The notes beneath the pieces are model-generated. The model was not told where the DNA came from and did not search any database. It saw nothing but the letters and a program-made list of their open reading frames with translations. From positions 1-48,872 of the forward strand of contig NZ_BFBX01000005.1 in NCBI RefSeq assembly GCF_003851045.1: a stretch of 48,872 bases of DNA, given 5' to 3'. This DNA comes from Paenibacillus sp. 598K (GTDB lineage: Bacteria; Bacillota; Bacilli; Paenibacillales; Paenibacillaceae). Made by a program: the position numbers and the translations under genes. Every line of letters begins with the position of its first letter. Position 1 is the stretch's first letter. Shown here piece after piece: positions 38,155-48,872 of this stretch.

Positions 38155-39132
38155 TCAGCTCAGCTTCGACCAGTCTCCGGCTTGCGGCAGATAGCGTTCC
38201 ATGATGCGGCGATGCTCTGCCAGCACAGCGGCGAGAGTCCCCGCGCTCAGGCTTCCTGCACCCGGGATCGAGGTGCGGAACCGCAGCTCTCCGTCCTCGG
38301 CGTCGAGCTCGAATGCGCCGCCGGGTCCGTCATAATTCAGATTCATCAGCTGCACGGCGACCGCTGCATGCGCGCTCGTCGGCACGAGCTCGGGGAAGAC
38401 GGAGTAGACGCTGCACCAGTCGCTCTCGCTTATATGGATCAGCATCCGCCAGCTCCCGATCTCGGTACGGATATCGAGCCGCACGACGTCCGAGGCGAAC
38501 ACCTCGTAGCGCAGGTTCAACTGTTGCAGCAGCCGCTCTAGCAGCATAGTCTGCGCCCCGCTGTAGCTGGCGACTCCCGATGTCTCGTCTCTTGCATCGT
38601 CCGGCTTCCGATGACCTGTGTGATCCTCAGGTTGCGCCGCGGCTTTCTCCGACTGGAGCCAGGCCGTCTGCAAGCCATGGCGGACGACGCCTTCGCTAGC
38701 CAAGGCGTCCGGCAATGGGATCTGCTGCATCAGCTCCAGCGCCAGCCAGCACTCCGACTGGCGGAGGAAGGTGTGCTCCGTCGCTCCCGGGAGCAGGGCC
38801 GCGAGGATGGTCTGGCTGTCTCCGCCGCTGCTGGCGATGCGCCGGGCATAGCTCTGGCGTAGCCTGGCGCGGATGACGACAGGCTCATCCAGATCGAAGC
38901 TCGGCTCGGCATTCACCAGATCGGTGAACAGGTGGAACCGCTCGTCGGCGATCCATGCTTCGACCAGGTGTCCCTCAGCCTCAAAGGTAATCTCGCACCG
39001 GACGGCGGTTCTGTGATCAGCCGCCTCCCAGACTAGCCGGGTCAGCTCTACCGGCAATGCTTCGCCCTCGAGCGACAAGAAGCTTAAGGGATAGCGGGTT
39101 CGGATTGCATTAGCGTCTTCGCGTGCGGGCAT
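38155..39132 (-). CDS. Hypothetical protein (~325 aa), possibly a tandem YbjN-like/chaperone-like fold (very tentative)
   Basis: ATG 39132 follows GGAGAGGAGAGG. The track start at 39138 is a TTG two codons upstream. No diagnostic motif. Confidence 0.5.
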   Translation of the reverse strand: MPAREDANAIRTRYPLSFLSLEGEALPVELTRLVWEAADHRTAVRCEITFEAEGHLVEAWIADERFHLFTDLVNAEPSFDLDEPVVIRARLRQSYARRIASSGGDSQTILAALLPGATEHTFLRQSECWLALELMQQIPLPDALASEGVVRHGLQTAWLQSEKAAAQPEDHTGHRKPDDARDETSGVASYSGAQTMLLERLLQQLNLRYEVFASDVVRLDIRTEIGSWRMLIHISESDWCSVYSVFPELVPTSAHAAVAVQLMNLNYDGPGGAFELDAEDGELRFRTSIPGAGSLSAGTLAAVLAEHRRIMERYLPQAGDWSKLS

Positions 39133-39459
39133 TCGCAACCTCTCCTCTCCGATGTTCTCTCATTGCAAGCCACTGTTGGCTTTCGATCACCCCAACATCA
39201 GCCTGATCCGCCTATTGGCGTATTATACCTGTTTCGTACCTGTTTCGTACCATACCGTTTGGGCGCTTCTCCGTAATGCAGTGCGGGTGCATCGACATTA
39301 GGCGGACTTTGCACATGTGGAGCGTGTGCGGTTGGTAGGGCGTATTGTTACTAGTAGTTGTCCTGGACTGCGCAAGATGTCAGCATCCGCTCAAAGCATT
39401 CGATGTGTAGAGAGTCAAGTCGGCGCCAGTCGCTGTTGTAGCGGAGGGACAGAAACGTA

Positions 39460-40107: not shown

Positions 40108-42948
40108 CTAGGTCTTCTCGATGCCGACGAGCCCGCCCTTGAGGCCGTAAGCGCCGTTTTCCTTGCTGAGGGCCAGCTTGCCGAGGCGCTTCGATTTCTC
40201 GATGGCGAGCGTCATGATGCCCGCTTCGATCTCAAGCCCCTTCGTCTGGCCGATCTCCAGCGACACCTCCCATTTGCTGAACTTGCCAGCGTCGTCCTTC
40301 TCTGCGCTAATATTGAGGGAGAAGTCCATCGTGCTGCTCAACGCAATCTTGTTGGACAGCTCGTCTGCGTCCAGCTCCTCGCTCGTGAACCAGCTGCGCA
40401 TCTGCTCCTGGATCTCGTCCTGATCCTGCAACTGCGAGGCGAAGCTCTCGCCCCAGGCGTCGAACTCCGGCACCAGGAAGAGCGTATCCGTCCCGATATC
40501 CGCAGCGGTGCCGGCATAGCTGGCGCCTTTTTTGTCCTTCATCGTATTCTGGACCGCGCCGACAGAGTTTTTCACAAGGCCGGAGATCGGCGCGACCAGC
40601 TTGGCCAGCGTCTTCGCCCATTCCGTCGTTTCCTCGCCGTACTGGAAGGGGAGGCCGGCCTCGACGGCGATCTCGACCTCCTTGAGCGTGCCGTCCATCC
40701 AGGCGAGCTCCAGCGCGATCCCGAAGTCGACGCCGGTGCCGGCGATCTCCAGCGACAGCGCGCTCTCGAACTCGAGGGTGCGGCGTTTGGAGCCGGAGAG
40801 CAAGGCGGTCGCCTTCTCGGCCAGCTTGGCCAGATCGGTCGAGTCGCCGAATGACCCGGCTTTATCCGTCACAGCGTCCTTGTCGTAGCGATTGAGCCGC
40901 TTGTGGCCGAGCGCCGCCTCCGCTTCGAACACACCCGCATTAACCTCGGCGGCGACTTGGCTGGTCAAGCCGACGTCGACGTGATTGTCCTCGTTGCTCA
41001 TCTCCTGTTGCTCGATCATCGCCGCCCACAGCTCGGCCTCCTCGAGCTTGCTCTTACCGGACTTGCCGCCATGGCCCCACAGCGAGTCGGCCGCTCCTGC
41101 GGAGAACTTGCGCATCTGTCGATACATCCCGTACGACATCAGGTTGACGGCGCTGTGCGAGTTGCTGCCCTGCGCTGCGAGGAAAAATCCGACCGACGCG
41201 TTCACGTCGAGACCAAAGCCGCCGAAGCCGCCGCCGATGCTCACTTGCGATTCCAGCGACAGCTCGCCTTCCTCCTTTTCCGCCTCCGCGCCGAGCGAGA
41301 TCAGGAAGTACGCGCCCGCCTGGATCGGAATCTTCAGCTCGAACTCGAGCGAGGCCGAATCGCCAGCCGCAGGCACGGCCAGATCGATGATTTTGGCGAC
41401 CTTGGCGAAGCCTTTGTTGAGCGAGTCTTCCTCGATCACATATTTGATCGCCTTGCCGGCGATATCGTCGGCCGTCACCTGCTGGCCGACCTGGGTGATC
41501 AGCTCGGAGCGCTTGATCAGATCCGGTCCGGCGCCCGTTTCCTTGTCGCCCTTCGTCACCTTGCGCGCTTCCGATTCGGCTTTTGGCATGATGATTTTGT
41601 AGAGCTCGGCCGCCTTGGCCTGCGCCCCGGTTTTGGAGGCTTTGGCGATCTTGTCTCCGGCGTCGGCATGACTTCTCGCTACGCTGTAGGCTGACGTCTG
41701 CGCCGCTTCCTTAAGCTGCTTGGTCGTCGGCTCCTGCGGCAGCAGCTGCGTGAGGATGCTGTCCGCGTGCGTGCCCATCACTTTGTCGACCGAGCTCTTG
41801 GAGGTGCTATGCGATTCAGCCTTGGCCAGCATGCCATAGTATTGCTTTCCTACGTTGCTCTTGCCGCTGGTGAGGCTGTTGCTGTCCAGTTGATTGTCGA
41901 TGTCGGTCCGGGCCTGCGTGCGTCCGGCTTCCTTGAGACTGTCGCGGAAGGCGTTGAGCTCGTCCGACCTGCGGAAGGCGCTGCGCCCGACGCCAAGCTT
42001 GAGCAGCACGACCTGACGGATCGGGTCGGCCAGACTGGCTTTATAGACCTGATCGATGACCGTGGCGTCGAACAGACTGTTCTCCAGTCGGCTTCGCTTG
42101 CCCGCTTCATCTGTTCCCAGCGTCTTGATATCGACATGGACGGAGAGGGCGCCGAGATCGTTTTGCATATCCTGCAGGATCGATTGCTTGCCGGCAGTCA
42201 GCGTCGCCTCGCCGATCTGCCGGGCTTCGCCGACCGTTTGCTTTTCGGCGCTTTTATCCGCTTCCTTGAGCTGCTTGCTCAGCTCGACGCCGGGCTTTGG
42301 AGCGACCATGGCGAAGCCTTCCTTGGCTTTGGTTTGCAGCTTTTCCTTTTGCGTATCGCCGAGCCTGGGAGTTGCGGTGCTCCCCGCATATTTTTTGAGC
42401 GTTTCGCCGAGTACATTTTGCGAGTCGACGAGTTGCTCCGCATACGACTTGGCATCCTTTTTTTGCTGGTCAGTGACGCTGCCTGTATTCTCCACTTGCT
42501 GTTGGACGGCACTAATGGCCGCTTGTCGCAAGCTGTTGCGTAACGCCGCCGTCTGCTTGTCCTTGGCTAGGAAAGTCGTCAGCTCGGTGGCTGTCGTACT
42601 TTGGAGCCCGGTGAAATACTTGTCGGCGAGCCGATTGGCGGTCGCATCCTTCTGCAGGTCAAGCTCGCCTTGCCGGATCTCCTCCTTGGACGGACCGCTC
42701 GGAGGCGGCGATCCGCTTCCGCTGGACTGCTGGCTGCGCGCGAGGTTGCGATTGCCGAGCGAGCGCTGCAGCGTGTTGCGCAGATCAAGAGGGGTGGGAG
42801 ATTGCGTGCCCTGAACGGGCGGCGATGTCGGGGTCTGCGTTGCAGTCTGCTGGGGAGCTTGCGTTTGGGTCTGCGTTTGCGCGGCAGTCTGTCGGTCTTG
42901 ATCGGAGGGTTTCTTTTTGCCGGTAAAGAGGGACGGGAAGGGAGCCAT
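40108..42948 (-). CDS. Large hypothetical protein (946 aa). It has a low-complexity Q/T/P-rich N-terminus, the leader motif TLQRSLGNRNLAR, and a Lys/Ala/Glu-rich body with a Gly-rich segment (GGGFGGFGLDVNASVGFFLAAQG).
   Basis: ATG 42948 (MAPFPSLFTGKKKP). No signal peptide or TM helix. It shares the leader motif with the divergent gene at 43180. Candidate injection-system cargo (inference). Confidence 0.6.
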   Translation of the reverse strand: MAPFPSLFTGKKKPSDQDRQTAAQTQTQTQAPQQTATQTPTSPPVQGTQSPTPLDLRNTLQRSLGNRNLARSQQSSGSGSPPPSGPSKEEIRQGELDLQKDATANRLADKYFTGLQSTTATELTTFLAKDKQTAALRNSLRQAAISAVQQQVENTGSVTDQQKKDAKSYAEQLVDSQNVLGETLKKYAGSTATPRLGDTQKEKLQTKAKEGFAMVAPKPGVELSKQLKEADKSAEKQTVGEARQIGEATLTAGKQSILQDMQNDLGALSVHVDIKTLGTDEAGKRSRLENSLFDATVIDQVYKASLADPIRQVVLLKLGVGRSAFRRSDELNAFRDSLKEAGRTQARTDIDNQLDSNSLTSGKSNVGKQYYGMLAKAESHSTSKSSVDKVMGTHADSILTQLLPQEPTTKQLKEAAQTSAYSVARSHADAGDKIAKASKTGAQAKAAELYKIIMPKAESEARKVTKGDKETGAGPDLIKRSELITQVGQQVTADDIAGKAIKYVIEEDSLNKGFAKVAKIIDLAVPAAGDSASLEFELKIPIQAGAYFLISLGAEAEKEEGELSLESQVSIGGGFGGFGLDVNASVGFFLAAQGSNSHSAVNLMSYGMYRQMRKFSAGAADSLWGHGGKSGKSKLEEAELWAAMIEQQEMSNEDNHVDVGLTSQVAAEVNAGVFEAEAALGHKRLNRYDKDAVTDKAGSFGDSTDLAKLAEKATALLSGSKRRTLEFESALSLEIAGTGVDFGIALELAWMDGTLKEVEIAVEAGLPFQYGEETTEWAKTLAKLVAPISGLVKNSVGAVQNTMKDKKGASYAGTAADIGTDTLFLVPEFDAWGESFASQLQDQDEIQEQMRSWFTSEELDADELSNKIALSSTMDFSLNISAEKDDAGKFSKWEVSLEIGQTKGLEIEAGIMTLAIEKSKRLGKLALSKENGAYGLKGGLVGIEKT

Positions 42949-43179
42949 GCACTGTCCTCCTTAAAGAGAGTATCGAATGTTAGAATCTGATCTGATTATA
43001 CATGACGCTTTCTTCCCTGTGTGACATTTTTTTGCGTGTGTCGCAATCGTTCGACATTTTTTTTATACATTTTGCAGGTAAAAGGGAGGAAGGTGTAGAA
43101 ATAAACAAAATTCCAGTATTTGAATCGGAACAGAGTGAAAGCAGCGGCGGGTCGAGGGCTGCAACGGGGAGGGCGAGGA
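42949..43179. promoter_or_regulatory. AT-rich divergent promoter region with the direct repeat GACATTTTTTT x2
   Basis: The 230-bp gap between divergent genes has the lowest GC content in the window. Repeats at 43021 and 43053. Confidence 0.4.
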
Positions 43180-44595
43180 ATGGCACGTAAATATGGCAAG
43201 CTGCCTCCGCTTGACTCGCATCCCGAGAAGCTGGACGAGGAGAAGACGCGACGTCCGGCGGCCAACCGCGAAGCGCCGCCGCTGGAGGAAGGGTCTCAGA
43301 CGCTGCAGCGATCGGTCGGCAACTCGGCGATCCGTCGGCTCGCCCGGACGGTAGCTGTCTCCGGCTCCGGCCCGCTGCTGCCCCGCGAGCCCAAGTATGC
43401 GCGATATGCCCGCTGGCTGCTGGCGCATGTAGAGGCGGACGGACGCCAGGAGCTGCTGCGCCGCTTTTACGCGCTGACGATGCCGCAGAAGCGGGCCGCC
43501 CTGGTCAATACAGTCGGCCGTCCGGCGCTGCAGAGCGAGCAGTACACGCTGGATCTGGACGACTTCGACCGCCAGGTAACCGCTGTCAAGCATGTACAGC
43601 TGCGACATGGCGAGTCGGAGAAGGAAGCGGACGAAAGCGAGCGGGGAGCGTTCCAGACGAAGGCAAGCCTCACCCCGGCCGGTCTGCTGCACCCGTACCG
43701 CGAACTCCTGTTGTGGCTCAACTACAAGGCCGTCAAGCAGGGCCAGGCCGCGCTGATGCTGCGGTTTGGCCGGCTGTCCGTCCCCCGCAAGCAGCTCGCG
43801 TTGCATCGGATGATGCGATTCCGCAGTATCACTGTCGATGCCTTCACCCGTCAGATGACGCTGCCGGTACTCGAGCGCGAGTGGGTCGACTGGGAGACGG
43901 TACGCGCGTCGATGGCGATGGCGGAGCGCGTGAAGGCCGAGGGCGGCCGGAGCGAGGCTGAAACTGGCGGAGAGCGCACAGACGGCGGAGATACAGCAGC
44001 CGACGAGCTGCTGGAGGGACTAGACGCCGGAGGACTGCCGACTGCGCTGCTATCGCTACTGGGGCTTGCGGACTCGGACGCCGGGACTGTAGGGATGGAC
44101 GATCGCAAGGGCGCTCGCGCCTCGGAGGAGCCTGCGACGGGTCAGGCTCAGGAGCGCCAGCCGTCGCCCGGAGCATCCAGGTCGGAGGCGATCAAGCCAG
44201 ACGCAGGCGGGGTGGCGCTGCTCGCCGGCAGGACCGCGGACTACTGGACGAGGCTGCTGCTAGGCGGCAAGGGCGCGCAGCCGCTCGCCGCCATCGCCGA
44301 GCGCTGTCGCAGCGGCGGCTTGGACAGGGAGGCAGTCGTCGACCGCTATCTCAACCTCGCGACCGCTCCTCCGGCAGGGCGGCGCAAGCAGCGCGACAAG
44401 CGGTTGCAGGCGTCGGGCTTCCGGACGGCGGCGGATTGCTTCGCCTTCCTCATCAGGGGCTTCGCCGCCTTCCTGATCCGGGGAGCGAAGGAGGGCAAGG
44501 ACAAGAGCTGCCGTCAGGCGCTCAAGCAATGGGACATCCCGGATGGCGCCGACGAGACGAAGGCGCAGGCGGCGATACTTGCAAGGCTCGGCTAG
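43180..44595 (+). CDS. Hypothetical protein (471 aa) with the N-terminal leader motif TLQRSVGNSAIRRLA. The C-terminal domain is Arg/Ala-rich and matches no known family.
   Basis: ATG 43180 lies 6 nt after GGGGAGGG. The motif sits at residues 41-55. The track start at GTG 43120 lacks an RBS. Confidence 0.55.
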   Translation: MARKYGKLPPLDSHPEKLDEEKTRRPAANREAPPLEEGSQTLQRSVGNSAIRRLARTVAVSGSGPLLPREPKYARYARWLLAHVEADGRQELLRRFYALTMPQKRAALVNTVGRPALQSEQYTLDLDDFDRQVTAVKHVQLRHGESEKEADESERGAFQTKASLTPAGLLHPYRELLLWLNYKAVKQGQAALMLRFGRLSVPRKQLALHRMMRFRSITVDAFTRQMTLPVLEREWVDWETVRASMAMAERVKAEGGRSEAETGGERTDGGDTAADELLEGLDAGGLPTALLSLLGLADSDAGTVGMDDRKGARASEEPATGQAQERQPSPGASRSEAIKPDAGGVALLAGRTADYWTRLLLGGKGAQPLAAIAERCRSGGLDREAVVDRYLNLATAPPAGRRKQRDKRLQASGFRTAADCFAFLIRGFAAFLIRGAKEGKDKSCRQALKQWDIPDGADETKAQAAILARLG

Positions 44596-44609
44596 CGGAT
44601 CGGCTAGGC

Positions 44610-47600
44610 GTGAATCTAGAGGCAGGATGGAGCGGCAGCGTGGCAGCACAATTACAGGCTTTTTTTAATCTCAGATACGAAGACCGCCGCAAAATCCTCG
44701 TCATGGGCCTTGTGTTCCTGCTGGCAGGCATCTCGGAGATGGTCAACTATACCGCTTATATGGGCATCTTCAACAGCAGGGTAGGCACGCAGTATTTGCC
44801 GATCATGTACATGATCGAGGCGCTTTTGCTGCCGCTCGAGGGCTGGGCGCTCGCCTATCTGTCGCAGCGCATCCCCAAGAAGCGCCTGATGATTACGCTC
44901 TACCTGTCCTTCGTCTCGATCGGTCTGATCGGCGGAGCGCTGCTGCTCCTCTTCCGCTGGACCGGCGCGGAGTGGACGTTCTTCTATTTCTTGCTGTTCC
45001 TGGGCTCCAGCTTTGTCGTCCGGCAGCAGACGCTGCTCATGTGGGCCACCGCCTTTGATCTGTGCCCGACCCAGCAGGCGAAGCGGGTCATGCCCGTCTT
45101 CGTGCTGCTGGCGATCATCGGCGGCATCGTCGCCGGCGTGCTCTCCCGGTTGCTGGCGCCGCTGCTCGGCGCAGAGCTGCTGTACCTGCTCGGGGCGATT
45201 ATCCTGTTGCTCGGCTTCCCTAACTTCCGCAGCGCGCTTCGCCAGTATTTGCTGCCCTCGGATATCGCGGACGAGGAGGGGGGAGAGGAGCTGGGCGCGG
45301 TCGGCCGTTCGATGAAGCTGATGCTGAGATCGCCCTTCCTGCTGGTCGTGCTCGGAGTGATGACCTTGATGCCGGCTGTGTATTATGTGATGGAATATCA
45401 ATACTTTACAGCCGCTCAGGCCGTGTTCCTCACGGAGGAGGAGTTGACAGCGTTCTATGGGCTGATGGTCATTGTGCTGTTTTGCGGCGCATTCGTCCTG
45501 CAGCTGTTCTCCGCGAGGCTGATGGCCTGGCTGGGCGCCAGCAACATGGTGCTCGGCATGACGGTCGTATTTCTCCTCTGCTTTGCGCTGGCGGCCCCGC
45601 TGGTGGGCTCATCCGGAGCGCTGTTCGCCGTATCGTTTGGCTATTGCCTCACCTATCTCCTTCTTTATTATTTCGCAGAACCAAGCTTTCAGCTGTTTTT
45701 CAAAATGTATCCCCAGCAGCAGCGGGACGGGCTGCGATTCACCGCCCAGAGCGTGTCGGCCTCGGCCGGCATCCTGCTCGGCTCCGGCGTCTCCCTGCTG
45801 CACTCCCGATTGGGCTGGAGTCTACCGGCCCAGGCGACGGTCGGACTGGCGATGGCAGCGCTGCTCGTCGCGCTAGCCTGGTCAATCCGCCGACTGTATA
45901 TGCAGCAGCTGTTGCATTACCTGCACGCGGCCGGAGGTTCGCTCAAGAACCGGTATCAGGACTTCGTCGAGTCGCTGCGCAGTCAGGATGCGAAGCGGGC
46001 GCTGATCGCCCGACTGGAGCAATCTGAGCCGCCGATCCAACGGATCACGCTGGAATGGCTGGCCGAAGCGCCGGACGCGGCCGCCTCAGAGGCGCTGCTG
46101 CGGTTCGCCGGGCGCCATCAGGGCGACGTATTGGCCATGGCGCTGACAGCGATCCATGCCGACGGCTGGCGCGAGATGGCGGCAGGCCGCGTCCGCGAGT
46201 GGGTGCAGGATGCGAGCGAGACGGTGCGGGCAGTCGCAGCGCGTCAGGCGATCGCCTCCGGGCGTCCGGACCGCGCGGAGTGGCTGCAGCTCGCATATCG
46301 CGATCCGGCGCTGCCGGTGCGACTGGAGGCGCTGCGCGTCTGGGAGAGCCAGGAGGAGGTGGAGCGGGAGCTGCGCGAGCTGCTGCAGCAAGGCGGCGAA
46401 GCGGCGCTCGCAGCTTGCCGGATGATCGGCGAGCGACGGCTCGCCTCGATGCTCTACGATGTCATGCTATGCATGCTGGAGCCTGCGATGGCGCTCAAGT
46501 ACGAGGCAGTGCGGACGATCGGCCGGATCGGCGACAGCGACATCGTCACCAGTCTGATGGACATGCTCGTCGGCGCGGATCGCGAGATGAGCCGGATCAT
46601 CGAGGAGGCGCTGCAGGAGGCGGGTGAGGTAACGGGCCTGACGCGCTTCCTTGACTCGCCCAATGAAGACATCTGGCGCGCCGCCGTCTTGACGGTCAAT
46701 GCGATCGGCGCCGATCGGGAGATCGCCGAGCTGGTCGTCCCGGCCTGTATCCGCAAGCTGATGGAGCTGTGCGCGGGCAACCGTATACTCGAGCTGATCG
46801 AGGAGGCGGGCCAGCCGGCGTGGACGGAGCTGGCGCGGCAGCGGCGCAACGAGGTGAACCGGATGCTGCTCGACACGATCTGGACCGTCATGGTCCGCTA
46901 CGGCGACGAGCGCTCGATCCCGCAGCTGCGGCGCGCGATCGAGGAGGGCGCCGAGGAGGCGCGCGACCACGGGCTGGAGATCCTCTCCGAGGGGATGGAT
47001 CACCCCCGCCTGGCGGGTGCGCTGCTCCTCTACTATCAGAGCATTCAGCACGGCGCCGCCAAGCGGACGGAGACGCACGCAGCGATCGAGAGCAGTCCCG
47101 AGCTTGCGGCGACGATGCCGACAGATCCATGGCTGCAGGCGATTCTCGTCAAGGCGAGCGCCAGGGAAGGAGAGGCGGAGTTGGCACAGACCTGGGAATA
47201 TTTGAGCGCGCTCGACAAAATCGTATTTCTGAAGCAAGTCCCGTTGTTCCACGAAATCTCGGTCGAGGAGCTCGGGCGCATCGCAAGCATCGCCGAGGAG
47301 CAGTCGTACGCGGAGGGCGAGTACCTGCTGCGTCAGGGCGAGCGCAGCAGCTCGCTCGTCATGATCGTCGACGGCGAGGTCGAGATGAGCGGGGTGGGCG
47401 ATGCCGGCGTAGAGGGCAGCCTGGCGAGACTGGGGCCGAAGATGACGTTTGGCGAGGCGGGACTGTTCGATGACCAGCCCTCGGCGGTCTCGGCGCAGGC
47501 GGTCCTGGGCGAGGTGCGGGTGCTGGCGATCGCGGGCGAGGAAGCGGCCAAGCTGGTGCGGCTCTATCCCGATATCGGCGTTGGTCTGCTCCGCTCCGTC

Positions 47601-47648
47601 AGCCAGCGCCTGCGCAGTCTGGAGCGGATGCTGCTGAAGCTGAGCTAG
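44610..47648 (+). CDS. Fusion protein: TLC-family (ATP/ADP-translocase-like, Npt) 12-TM transporter, HEAT-repeat region and C-terminal cyclic-nucleotide-binding (CAP-type) domain
   Basis: N-terminus FFNLRYEDRRKILVMGLVFLLAGISEMVNYTAYMG plus WATAFDLCPTQQAKRVMPVF match the TLC motifs FNYSILRD and FANEIT..EAKRFYP. Residues ~560-900 are HEAT-like (EALLRFAGRHQGDVLAMALTAIHADG...). The cNMP-binding domain reads FLKQVPLFHEISVEELGRIASIAEEQSYAEGEYLLRQGERSSSLVMIVDGEVEM...FGEAGLFDDQP. The start is uncertain: GTG 44610 or 44640, or ATG 44703. Confidence 0.75.
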   Translation: MNLEAGWSGSVAAQLQAFFNLRYEDRRKILVMGLVFLLAGISEMVNYTAYMGIFNSRVGTQYLPIMYMIEALLLPLEGWALAYLSQRIPKKRLMITLYLSFVSIGLIGGALLLLFRWTGAEWTFFYFLLFLGSSFVVRQQTLLMWATAFDLCPTQQAKRVMPVFVLLAIIGGIVAGVLSRLLAPLLGAELLYLLGAIILLLGFPNFRSALRQYLLPSDIADEEGGEELGAVGRSMKLMLRSPFLLVVLGVMTLMPAVYYVMEYQYFTAAQAVFLTEEELTAFYGLMVIVLFCGAFVLQLFSARLMAWLGASNMVLGMTVVFLLCFALAAPLVGSSGALFAVSFGYCLTYLLLYYFAEPSFQLFFKMYPQQQRDGLRFTAQSVSASAGILLGSGVSLLHSRLGWSLPAQATVGLAMAALLVALAWSIRRLYMQQLLHYLHAAGGSLKNRYQDFVESLRSQDAKRALIARLEQSEPPIQRITLEWLAEAPDAAASEALLRFAGRHQGDVLAMALTAIHADGWREMAAGRVREWVQDASETVRAVAARQAIASGRPDRAEWLQLAYRDPALPVRLEALRVWESQEEVERELRELLQQGGEAALAACRMIGERRLASMLYDVMLCMLEPAMALKYEAVRTIGRIGDSDIVTSLMDMLVGADREMSRIIEEALQEAGEVTGLTRFLDSPNEDIWRAAVLTVNAIGADREIAELVVPACIRKLMELCAGNRILELIEEAGQPAWTELARQRRNEVNRMLLDTIWTVMVRYGDERSIPQLRRAIEEGAEEARDHGLEILSEGMDHPRLAGALLLYYQSIQHGAAKRTETHAAIESSPELAATMPTDPWLQAILVKASAREGEAELAQTWEYLSALDKIVFLKQVPLFHEISVEELGRIASIAEEQSYAEGEYLLRQGERSSSLVMIVDGEVEMSGVGDAGVEGSLARLGPKMTFGEAGLFDDQPSAVSAQAVLGEVRVLAIAGEEAAKLVRLYPDIGVGLLRSVSQRLRSLERMLLKLS

Positions 47649-47922
47649 AGCTTGTGCAGCCTGTGGGCGCAGGAACAGGCGGGACAAAAAAATATGTGAC
47701 ATAGCTATACTCACGAATGAGGAGTATGCCGATAACCGTAGTGTACTCTCTCTCACGGGATCTCTCTCGCTTCAAAATGTCGAATGATGTCCCGATTTTT
47801 ACTGTTGAGGGGCCTTTGTCCTACGACTGTCCTGCCCAAAGAACGATCCCGTGACCGTAGGCATAGTTTTGAGGGCAGCCTGATGTATCGGGATCATCTG
47901 AATTCGGGAGAGTGAACTTGGA

Positions 47923-48872
47923 ATGACTTATACGCAAGAAGCTTCTCCTTATCAGAATGGGGCGGAGTATCTGTTCGATGAGTGGGTCCGGCTCGATGTC
48001 GTGCTGGAGATCGAGATGCAGCGGATGATGCAGGGCGCGCAAGAGCTGGATCAAGATAGCGGCGCATTCCGCGGCATGTATCTGTCCGATGCCGAGGCCA
48101 AAGCGCTCCTCGACGAGGACGAGCCGTACCTGCAGCTGACAACGGAGCAGGCCTATCTGCTGGACCAGCTCGAGGCGCGCATCCGGCATAATCTGGCTGC
48201 GACCTCCGGGGAGCGGCTGCCGCTGCTGCGTCTGCAGCAGGCGCTCGGGCTGAACGAGCAGGAGATACGGCTGCTGCTGGCAGCGCTTGCGCCCCATGCC
48301 AATCGCAAATACATACGATTATACGGATATCTGCAAGACGACATGTCCAGCCAGCATCTGTCGCTCGATCTGGCGCTGCGCATCACCAGCCGCAGTCCGG
48401 TAGAGCGAAGGGAACTGCTGAAGCGCTGGACGGATGACCACGGCTCGCTCCGCTCGCTGTTTGCGGATGGATCGGCAGCACATGCCCGCAAGGACGTATC
48501 GATGCTGACGGCGCCGCTCACGCTGAGGCCGCGCGTCGTCCACCTCCTGCTGGACCTGCCGTGGCGAGCGCGGGACACGCTCCGCGGACTGGCTCACTAC
48601 ACGCTGGACAGTCATCGCCAGCTGGAGCAGCCGCTCATCCAGACCGAGCTGCGCCGACGTCTGTCGGACTACGCGCGCGAGCGGGCAGCGTACCCCGTGC
48701 ACTGGAACCTGCACGGTCCCACAGGCAGCGGCAAGACGTTCCAGGCCAGACATCTGTGCGCCGACCTCGGCCTGGGGCTGCTGGAATGGGAGCTCGGTCA
48801 GGCTGCGCAGGAGCCGGAGGCGCTGCGCGGCGAGCTGGCGCAGCTGCTGCTCGAGGCGCGGCTGCAGGAGGC
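47923..48872 (+). CDS. AAA+ ATPase, 5' part (runs off the window). The N-terminal domain resembles the Afp15/Pvc15-type ATPase of extracellular contractile injection systems.
   Basis: GMYLSDAEAKALLDEDEPY and LGLNEQEIRLLLAALAPHANRKYIRLYGYLQDDMSSQHLSLDLALRI match the conserved N-domain pattern recalled for CIS ATPases (GL.ISDAEVD.LL and LLLaLAPELD.RYERLYGYLqDDvTRR.pTVgLALEL). Walker A reads NLHGPTGSGKT. GGGAGAG RBS. Confidence 0.65.
   Translation, partial: MTYTQEASPYQNGAEYLFDEWVRLDVVLEIEMQRMMQGAQELDQDSGAFRGMYLSDAEAKALLDEDEPYLQLTTEQAYLLDQLEARIRHNLAATSGERLPLLRLQQALGLNEQEIRLLLAALAPHANRKYIRLYGYLQDDMSSQHLSLDLALRITSRSPVERRELLKRWTDDHGSLRSLFADGSAAHARKDVSMLTAPLTLRPRVVHLLLDLPWRARDTLRGLAHYTLDSHRQLEQPLIQTELRRRLSDYARERAAYPVHWNLHGPTGSGKTFQARHLCADLGLGLLEWELGQAAQEPEALRGELAQLLLEARLQE

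Follow-up and report, generated by a model that had tools for sequence, protein, structure and literature searches.

A predicted Afp15/Pvc15-type ATPase gene of a contractile injection system, with a conserved upstream module, in Paenibacillus sp. 598K

The open reading frame at the window end

The DNA analyzed here, referred to below as the window, is a stretch of 48,872 nucleotides from Paenibacillus sp. 598K (contig NZ_BFBX01000005.1), and it ends within an open reading frame (ORF) that begins with an ATG at position 47923 on the forward strand and remains open to base 48872, giving 316 codons with no stop before the window cuts it off. We consider this ORF (47923-48872, +) to be the 5' part of the gene for a dedicated AAA+ ATPase of a phage-tail-like contractile injection system (CIS), belonging to the Afp15/Pvc15/Alg15 family, and from the sequence comparisons below we assign this reading a probability of about 0.88. 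A purine-rich stretch, GGGAGAG, lies ~12 nt 5' of the ATG, and the start is conserved with the orthologs: In the alignment, the window reads MTYTQEASPYQNG where the ortholog of Paenibacillus daejeonensis (locus L001) reads MTQTQEASPYPNL. Substitutions between the window and this ortholog fall 62/46/150 on codon positions 1/2/3, which indicates that the gene is under purifying selection.

The encoded fragment consists of an N domain matching the Pfam family PF22977 (residues 4-212, nt 47932-48558, +), followed by the start of the first nucleotide-binding domain, D1. The original prediction, made from the DNA letters, held that the window ends inside an injection-system-type AAA+ ATPase, and the ORF running off the end, the PF22977 match, and the alignment with Afp15 given below all bear this out. 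The sequence blocks it had named are likewise all present in the ORF: LSDAEAKALL at residues 54-63 (nt 48082-48111, +), the family hallmark block LLLAALAPHANRKYIRLYGYLQDD at residues 117-140 (nt 48271-48342, +), and LSLDLAL at residues 146-152 (nt 48358-48378, +). The Walker A motif does occur in its canonical form, GPTGSGKT, but at residues 265-272 (nt 48715-48738, +); the predicted position, residue ~290, was ~20 residues too far along. This motif is the P-loop of D1, the first and usually degenerate ATPase domain, and the canonical AAA module, D2 (~residues 505-630 in the orthologs), lies beyond the window edge.

Compared with Pfam, the fragment matches PF22977 ("winged helix domain, variant") with an E value of 1.8e-28 (100 bits, cutoff 27), far better than a chance match. 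The same domain is found in Afp15 of the Serratia entomophila pADAP antifeeding-prophage cluster (WP_010895817.1, taken by accession as the reference; E 6.6e-20) and in the extracellular CIS (eCIS) ATPase of a Nostoc plasmid (E 2.1e-62). PF22977 together with AAA (PF00004) is the architecture common to these two proteins and to the orthologs of P. daejeonensis and of Paenibacillus sp. 1P07SE (L002), in both of which PF00004, corresponding to D2, reaches E 1e-33. Aligned directly with Afp15 (residues 48-153), the fragment is 31% identical at a pairwise E of 3e-5, and the alignment falls exactly on the previously quoted LLxxLxPxxxxxYxxLxxxxQ block. The fragment is 74% identical to the L001 and 66% identical to the L002 ortholog, and matches the product of a metagenomic relative (L012) in 299/316 residues; the L002 ortholog is in turn collinear with full-length Afp15 at 30% identity over 636 alignment columns (~600 residues; E 1e-66). 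The shared PF22977 domain, the direct alignment, and the collinear ortholog thus uphold the original assignment to the Afp15/Pvc15 family and, judged by these matches, the marker ATPase is recognizable from its N-terminal 316 residues alone.

The extent of the family was surveyed by searching 1.84 billion cluster representatives exhaustively with phmmer; the fragment found 1546 matches at E<=1e-3 and 228 at E<=1e-10. Among the best 150 matches listed, 97 are full-length proteins (>=650 aa) matched at their N-terminus, and outside the clade to which the query belongs, even the best match reaches only 37% identity. An alignment of the fragment with ten relatives from Bacillota, Chloroflexota, Cyanobacteriota, Actinomycetota, Pseudomonadota, and a Methanosaeta metagenome-assembled genome (MAG) shows the hallmark Y-x-[RKE]-[ILV]-Y-[GSA]-Y-L-Q-[DS]-D in nine of the ten related sequences, the exception being Afp15 itself (YYELFSWIQGG). 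Other searches returned less: A word-indexed protein search with the 316-aa fragment gave no match, a second one with a concatenated query from L001 (middle of the ATPase, Pvc16, tube, 125-aa protein, second tube) gave five ATPases only, none of them from 598K, and the pADAP Afp15 was not among the plasmid matches of a tblastn search with the fragment.

A coincidental likeness of motifs in a P-loop or AAA+ ATPase of some other clade (ESX EccA, SpoVK/CbbX, FtsH, or ClpX) has to be weighed here, given that only a short P-loop stretch is visible in the window and that this stretch stays below the Pfam AAA threshold (17.7 bits against a cutoff of 21.2). In the Protein Data Bank (PDB), moreover, the full-length ortholog matches only generic D2 domains of the p97/Cdc48/VAT type, to which its D2 is closest, although such a likeness is expected of a classic-clade AAA protein; the fragment itself matches nothing there at E<=1, so that by sequence search the PDB holds no solved structure of the N domain. 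The Pfam profile search returned PF22977 at the E value above, as in Afp15, and no named ATPase family in NCBIfam above E 0.018. Every related locus with sufficient flanking sequence is a CIS locus, and the ortholog follows Afp15 along its full length. We regard a generic ATPase of another clade as extremely improbable, and rejected it on the PF22977 match, the CIS linkage, and the Afp15 collinearity.

The canonical Walker A of D1 is uncommon within the family. GxxxxGK[ST] occurs in the D1 region of only 8 of the 97 full-length representatives among the matches listed; the P. daejeonensis and 1P07SE orthologs and two further Paenibacillus-type loci (L015 and L016) also have GxxxxGKT, whereas Afp15 has GMPGSARA at this position and the D1 Walker A of Pvc15 carries Arg in place of Lys (PMC11495950). 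The window stops at residue 316, ahead of the Walker B region, and at the aligned Walker B position the L001 and L002 orthologs have no acidic pair. A canonical Walker A combined with such a Walker B suggests that D1 of the Paenibacillus protein may bind nucleotide without hydrolyzing it.

Related loci and the genes past the window edge

A scan of a genome collection yielded the two Paenibacillus orthologs, L001 and L002, and five distant loci. All nine of the related loci with enough flanking sequence (L001, L002, L005, L006, L007, L008, L010, L015, and L016) contain CIS structural genes; the distant ones with CIS genes lie on the Nostoc plasmid, a Paraburkholderia replicon, and in a second Nostoc, a Chloroflexota MAG, and a Streptomyces. 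The Nostoc plasmid locus is annotated with VgrG/Pvc8, gp25, baseplate, and DUF4157 proteins, and in two short contigs (L003 and L004) a DUF4157 gene directly follows the ATPase on its 3' side.

Four Paenibacillus-type loci, L001, L002, L015, and L016, have the same upstream genes; of these, L016 is the more distant (ATPase 40% identical). The window aligns with L001 at 40109-47649 and 47902-48872, thus on either side of the ATPase start, and the ATPase is 722 aa long in both L001 and L002. On its 3' side, all four loci encode in the same order a Pvc16_N cap, a sheath, a gp19 tube, a protein of 125-131 aa, a second tube, and a long ORF of 1200-1400 aa, which in L002 has 1406 aa and no Pfam match to DUF4157. 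L015 and L016 reach further and add a CIS_tube/LysM tube initiator and a Phage_GPD spike, and L016 also a Phage_base_V gene. By synteny, 598K should therefore have cap (Pvc16), sheath, tube, tube initiator, spike, and baseplate genes directly past the window edge. The tail-like structural genes anticipated by the original prediction are accordingly present in every syntenic relative, whereas for 598K itself they are an extrapolation from gene order; within the 48.9-kb window, tblastn with Afp1-16 and with the Nostoc and Paenibacillus eCIS proteins detected no structural gene.

The closest relatives are three metagenomic loci (L012-L014; 92% nucleotide identity), which have the same gene order as the window. 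The ATPase of L012 (95% identical) continues in frame through D1 to the D2 Walker A, GPPGTGKT, and to VSKYIGETEKNL, remaining open for at least 559 codons. All three contigs end within the ATPase gene and are thus uninformative on the downstream genes, and a search of metagenome contigs for an exact 41-mer from the ATPase gene close to the window end came back empty. It should be noted that these three independent assemblies all break where D2 is encoded, a highly conserved region, perhaps owing to mixed strains or to another, near-identical AAA segment in those genomes.

The upstream genes within the window

The original prediction took the ATPase to mark the probable edge of the locus. This does not hold, as conserved companion genes reach back to ~38-40 kb within the window: On the evidence of synteny and sequence conservation, the ATPase is not the locus edge, and the ~8-10 kb upstream of it form a conserved module of this lineage. 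The gene next to the ATPase (44640-47648, +) encodes a 1002-aa membrane protein which, according to Pfam, has an MFS-like transmembrane region, HEAT repeats, and a C-terminal cyclic-nucleotide-binding (cNMP) domain. This MFS-HEAT-cNMP gene is always found directly upstream either of the lineage's ATPase or of a partner-switching gene trio described below, and its product may act as a sensor or membrane adaptor. Further upstream lie the genes for a 471-aa protein (43180-44595, +; 100% identical to PA598K_00498) and a 946-aa protein (40108-42948, -), both conserved and without a Pfam domain. The counterparts in L016 are 55% (MFS-HEAT-cNMP protein), 33% (471-aa protein), and 35% (946-aa protein) identical. 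The 471-aa and 946-aa genes are divergently transcribed.

Directly downstream of the 946-aa gene is that of a YbjN/CesT-like protein of 327 aa (38155-39138, -; Pfam YbjN E 7.8e-8, CesT E 0.007), a fold family resembling secretion chaperones. It is conserved in L012-L014, and L016 has at this position a 326-aa gene known only from its last 43 nt. The YbjN/CesT-like gene probably forms the left end of the conserved module. Left of ~38 kb, the window holds ordinary sugar-utilization and regulatory genes: Positions 1-38000 include an FtsX-type permease, a 2-hydroxyacid dehydrogenase, AraC and GntR regulators, a solute-binding protein, an alpha-L-fucosidase, a GH92 protein, a GGDEF protein, and a 1114-aa transglutaminase-like protein.

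Several sequence features make the 946-aa and 471-aa proteins candidates, and candidates only, for cargo or, in the case of the 471-aa protein, for an accessory protein. Their N-termini, which in the 946-aa protein are rich in Q, T, and P, are the most hydrophilic among the 24 genes of the window (mean hydropathy -1.29 and -1.42, respectively), and both proteins have an aromatic residue within their first eight residues; a hydrophilic N-terminus with an early aromatic residue agrees with how eCIS signal peptides have been described (PMC11297309). Both also carry a short motif, (L/M)Q(R)xxGNxxxxR (the LQRxxGN motif), near residue 40-60: LQRSVGNSAIRRLA near residue 42 of the 471-aa protein and LQRSLGNRNLAR near residue 60 of the 946-aa protein. 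These are its only two occurrences in the window, counted over all six frames in ORFs of at least 80 codons. The motif is retained in the L016 counterparts, and in the Methanosaeta and Chloroflexota loci (L003-L005) it directly precedes DUF4157 in cargo-like genes beside the ATPase.

The 274-bp intergenic region between the MFS-HEAT-cNMP gene and the ATPase (47649-47922) retains a trace of further genes. In L001, L002, L015, and L016, a trio encoding a HATPase_c_2 kinase, a STAS protein, and a GAF-SpoIIE phosphatase (PP2C) of the partner-switching type stands between the membrane-protein gene and the ATPase; it is absent from 598K and also from L012-L014. A 59-nt stretch of the gap (47682-47740) is 73-75% identical to the 3' end of the GAF-SpoIIE phosphatase gene of both L001 and L002, and this remnant indicates that a 2.3-kb deletion removed the trio in the 598K lineage. 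In the sequence ahead of the ATPase, scans gave no sigma-70-like promoter, terminator, or Rfam match.

With 2.3 kb deleted beside the ATPase, and with the assemblies of the close relatives breaking within the ATPase gene, one may ask whether the locus is a decaying remnant, or belongs to a prophage tail or R-type tailocin, and the ATPase a functionless leftover. The 62/46/150 substitution pattern is that of a gene under purifying selection, however, and in the 92%-identical relative no stop codon interrupts the frame over at least 559 codons. Wherever the Afp15-type ATPase and the Pvc16 cap occur in the loci examined, CIS structural genes accompany them, and the available stretches of the syntenic loci revealed no capsid, portal, or terminase genes. 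Such an origin is very unlikely in our view, and both the prophage tail or tailocin and the pseudogene were rejected on the purifying selection, the open frame, and the company of CIS genes.

A number of points nevertheless weigh against assigning the ORF to a CIS locus equipped with its own cargo. The window does not reach the catalytic domain, D2; the downstream structural genes of 598K are expected from synteny and were not seen; and the contigs of L012, L013, and L014 end inside the ATPase, at residues 559, 545, and 530, respectively. The loss of the trio in the 598K lineage amounts to some remodelling of the locus. As for the two candidate cargo proteins, Pfam identifies neither DUF4157 nor a toxin domain in them, and both are unusually conserved for effectors, at 33-35% identity to L016 and with long invariant blocks among the Paenibacillus relatives. 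An AlphaFold model of the 471-aa protein from six sequences has a mean pLDDT of 46, and Foldseek found nothing for it in the PDB at E<=0.001; with a poor model and an empty structure search, no function can be assigned to this protein.

Proposed mechanism and comparison with known systems

The experimental work on two homologous systems offers a model for the function of the ATPase. Pvc15 has a winged-helix-like N domain, a catalytically deficient D1, and an active D2 whose ATPase activity mediates the loading of payloads tagged with a signal peptide (PMC11495950). In the AlgoCIS of Algoriphagus machipongonensis, cargo is loaded by way of a disordered N-terminal loading sequence, for which Alg15 is required; purified particles lack Alg15 (bioRxiv 10.64898/2026.05.27.728243). 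By analogy, the Paenibacillus protein should work as these two do: An N-terminal winged-helix-type domain (PF22977), a nucleotide-binding D1, and a catalytic classic-clade AAA D2 would make up a protein that assembles into a hexamer, and this hexamer would recognize disordered, hydrophilic N-terminal loading sequences on its cargo and load it while not itself forming part of the finished particle. The upstream companions, that is, the two proteins with the LQRxxGN motif, the YbjN-like protein, and the MFS-HEAT-cNMP protein, belong with the ATPase to a single lineage-specific locus.

As judged from the orthologs, the likeness to the afp and pvc systems extends over the protein, with the PF22977 N domain, D1, and a classic AAA D2 arranged collinearly within ~700 residues at 30% identity, and over the genes to which it is linked in the Paenibacillus-type loci, the Pvc16/Afp16 cap, the sheath, and the gp19-type tubes. 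They differ in arrangement, as afp and pvc have the ATPase and cap at the 3' end, after the tape-measure gene, whereas the Paenibacillus-type loci have them at the start of the structural operon. The D1 Walker A is degenerate in Afp15 and Pvc15 and canonical (GPTGSGKT) in 598K, and the host of the latter is a Gram-positive spore-former. Alg15, compared here by its description, shares the proposed role of an AAA+ cargo loader (bioRxiv 10.64898/2026.05.27.728243); its domain layout is possibly different, since the catalytic Walker B residue quoted for it is E292. In AlgoCIS cargo, the disordered N-terminal loading sequence is often followed by DUF4157 (bioRxiv 10.64898/2026.05.27.728243). The 598K neighbors resemble such cargo in their hydrophilic N-termini and in a motif that precedes DUF4157 in other loci, but neither of the two candidates contains DUF4157.

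The actinobacterial systems, Streptomyces CISSc and the tme type of S. davawensis, share with the Paenibacillus-type loci the series of ATPase, sheath, tube, 125-aa protein, and long ORF, as seen in the Streptomyces locus L007. The long ORF after the tube genes stands where the tape-measure-related effector Tme is encoded (PMC11126660), with the difference that the 1406-aa ORF of L002 lacks a Pfam DUF4157. The two motif proteins, the MFS-HEAT-cNMP protein, and the partner-switching trio distinguish the Paenibacillus lineage from the actinobacterial CIS as a module of its own; in L007, tblastn searches with a 474-aa protein, the MFS-HEAT-cNMP protein, and the trio gave no match.

This resemblance raises the question of where the machine would act. 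In Streptomyces coelicolor, the CIS is cytoplasmic and its firing needs the membrane protein CisA (PMC12237407), and a Paenibacillus machine acting in the same manner inside the producing cell would be triggered by stress at the cell's own membrane, leading to cell death or affecting development, with the MFS-HEAT-cNMP protein as a CisA-like adaptor or sensor. The gene order from the ATPase through sheath and tube to the 125-aa gene and onward, shared with L007, is consistent with this, as are the conservation upstream of the ATPase of a large membrane protein with a cNMP sensor, at 55% identity even in L016, and the presence at the same place, in most relatives, of the stress-type partner-switching trio (HATPase_c_2, STAS, GAF-PP2C). 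The genes for tail fibres with an eBAP3 anchor in Bacillota and Actinobacteriota have, on the other hand, been argued to be a sign of extracellular action, and PVC particles given a Paenibacillus fibre were redirected to THP-1 cells (PMC12923769). An intracellular machine is thus conceivable, though we hold it to be doubtful.

A broader reading of the locus as a whole is, in our estimation, unlikely and put forward as speculation. It would be a hitherto undescribed control-and-cargo module of a Firmicute CIS lineage, in which the assembly or firing of particles would respond to stress or to a second messenger, perhaps at the membrane of the producer. The two DUF4157-less proteins would be addressed to the ATPase by (L/M)Q(R)xxGNxxxxR and would have a partner with a chaperone fold; a cyclic-nucleotide-sensing MFS-HEAT membrane protein and, in most members, an RsbW/RsbV/RsbU-like trio would provide the control; and firing might take place at the producer membrane in the way that CisA brings it about in Streptomyces. 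Paenibacillus sp. 598K and its close relatives would then represent natural deletion variants without the partner-switching layer.

The finding flags a CIS locus in Paenibacillus sp. 598K. The suggestion in the original prediction that a locus of the Paenibacillus type would be under-explored has not stood up: Paenibacillus is included in eCIS catalogues and the validated eCIS toxin EAT8 is from P. jilunlii (PMC8213781), and chimeric PVC particles have served to test a fibre of Paenibacillus sp. URHA0014, with the eBAP3 anchor reported in Bacillota (PMC12923769). As these catalogues already include the genus, finding the locus is routine, and it is an ordinary further example of a system already catalogued in Paenibacillus; the points specific to the lineage, which are modest, are the conserved upstream module, the loss of the trio, and the canonical P-loop of D1. 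The module is the more useful outcome, as its two conserved proteins, candidates for cargo or accessory roles, carry a short N-terminal motif that can be recognized. This motif bears on the question of the loading signal, for which the published work cited here reports no conserved sequence across systems. The membrane protein with its cNMP-binding domain and the partner-switching trio represent a possible regulatory input, and the regulation of CIS in Gram-positive bacteria is little understood.

A further observation concerns the small protein of 125-131 aa, which has no Pfam match and is encoded directly after the first tube gene in six of six loci (L001, L002, L005, L006, L007, and L010; for example, at 15686-16063 in L001 and 15441-15836 in L002). 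In four of these loci (L001, L002, L006, and L010), its gene precedes a second tube gene. The protein is ~57% identical across Bacillota, Chloroflexota, Cyanobacteriota, Actinomycetota, and Pseudomonadota, a level of conservation exceeding that of the tube proteins.

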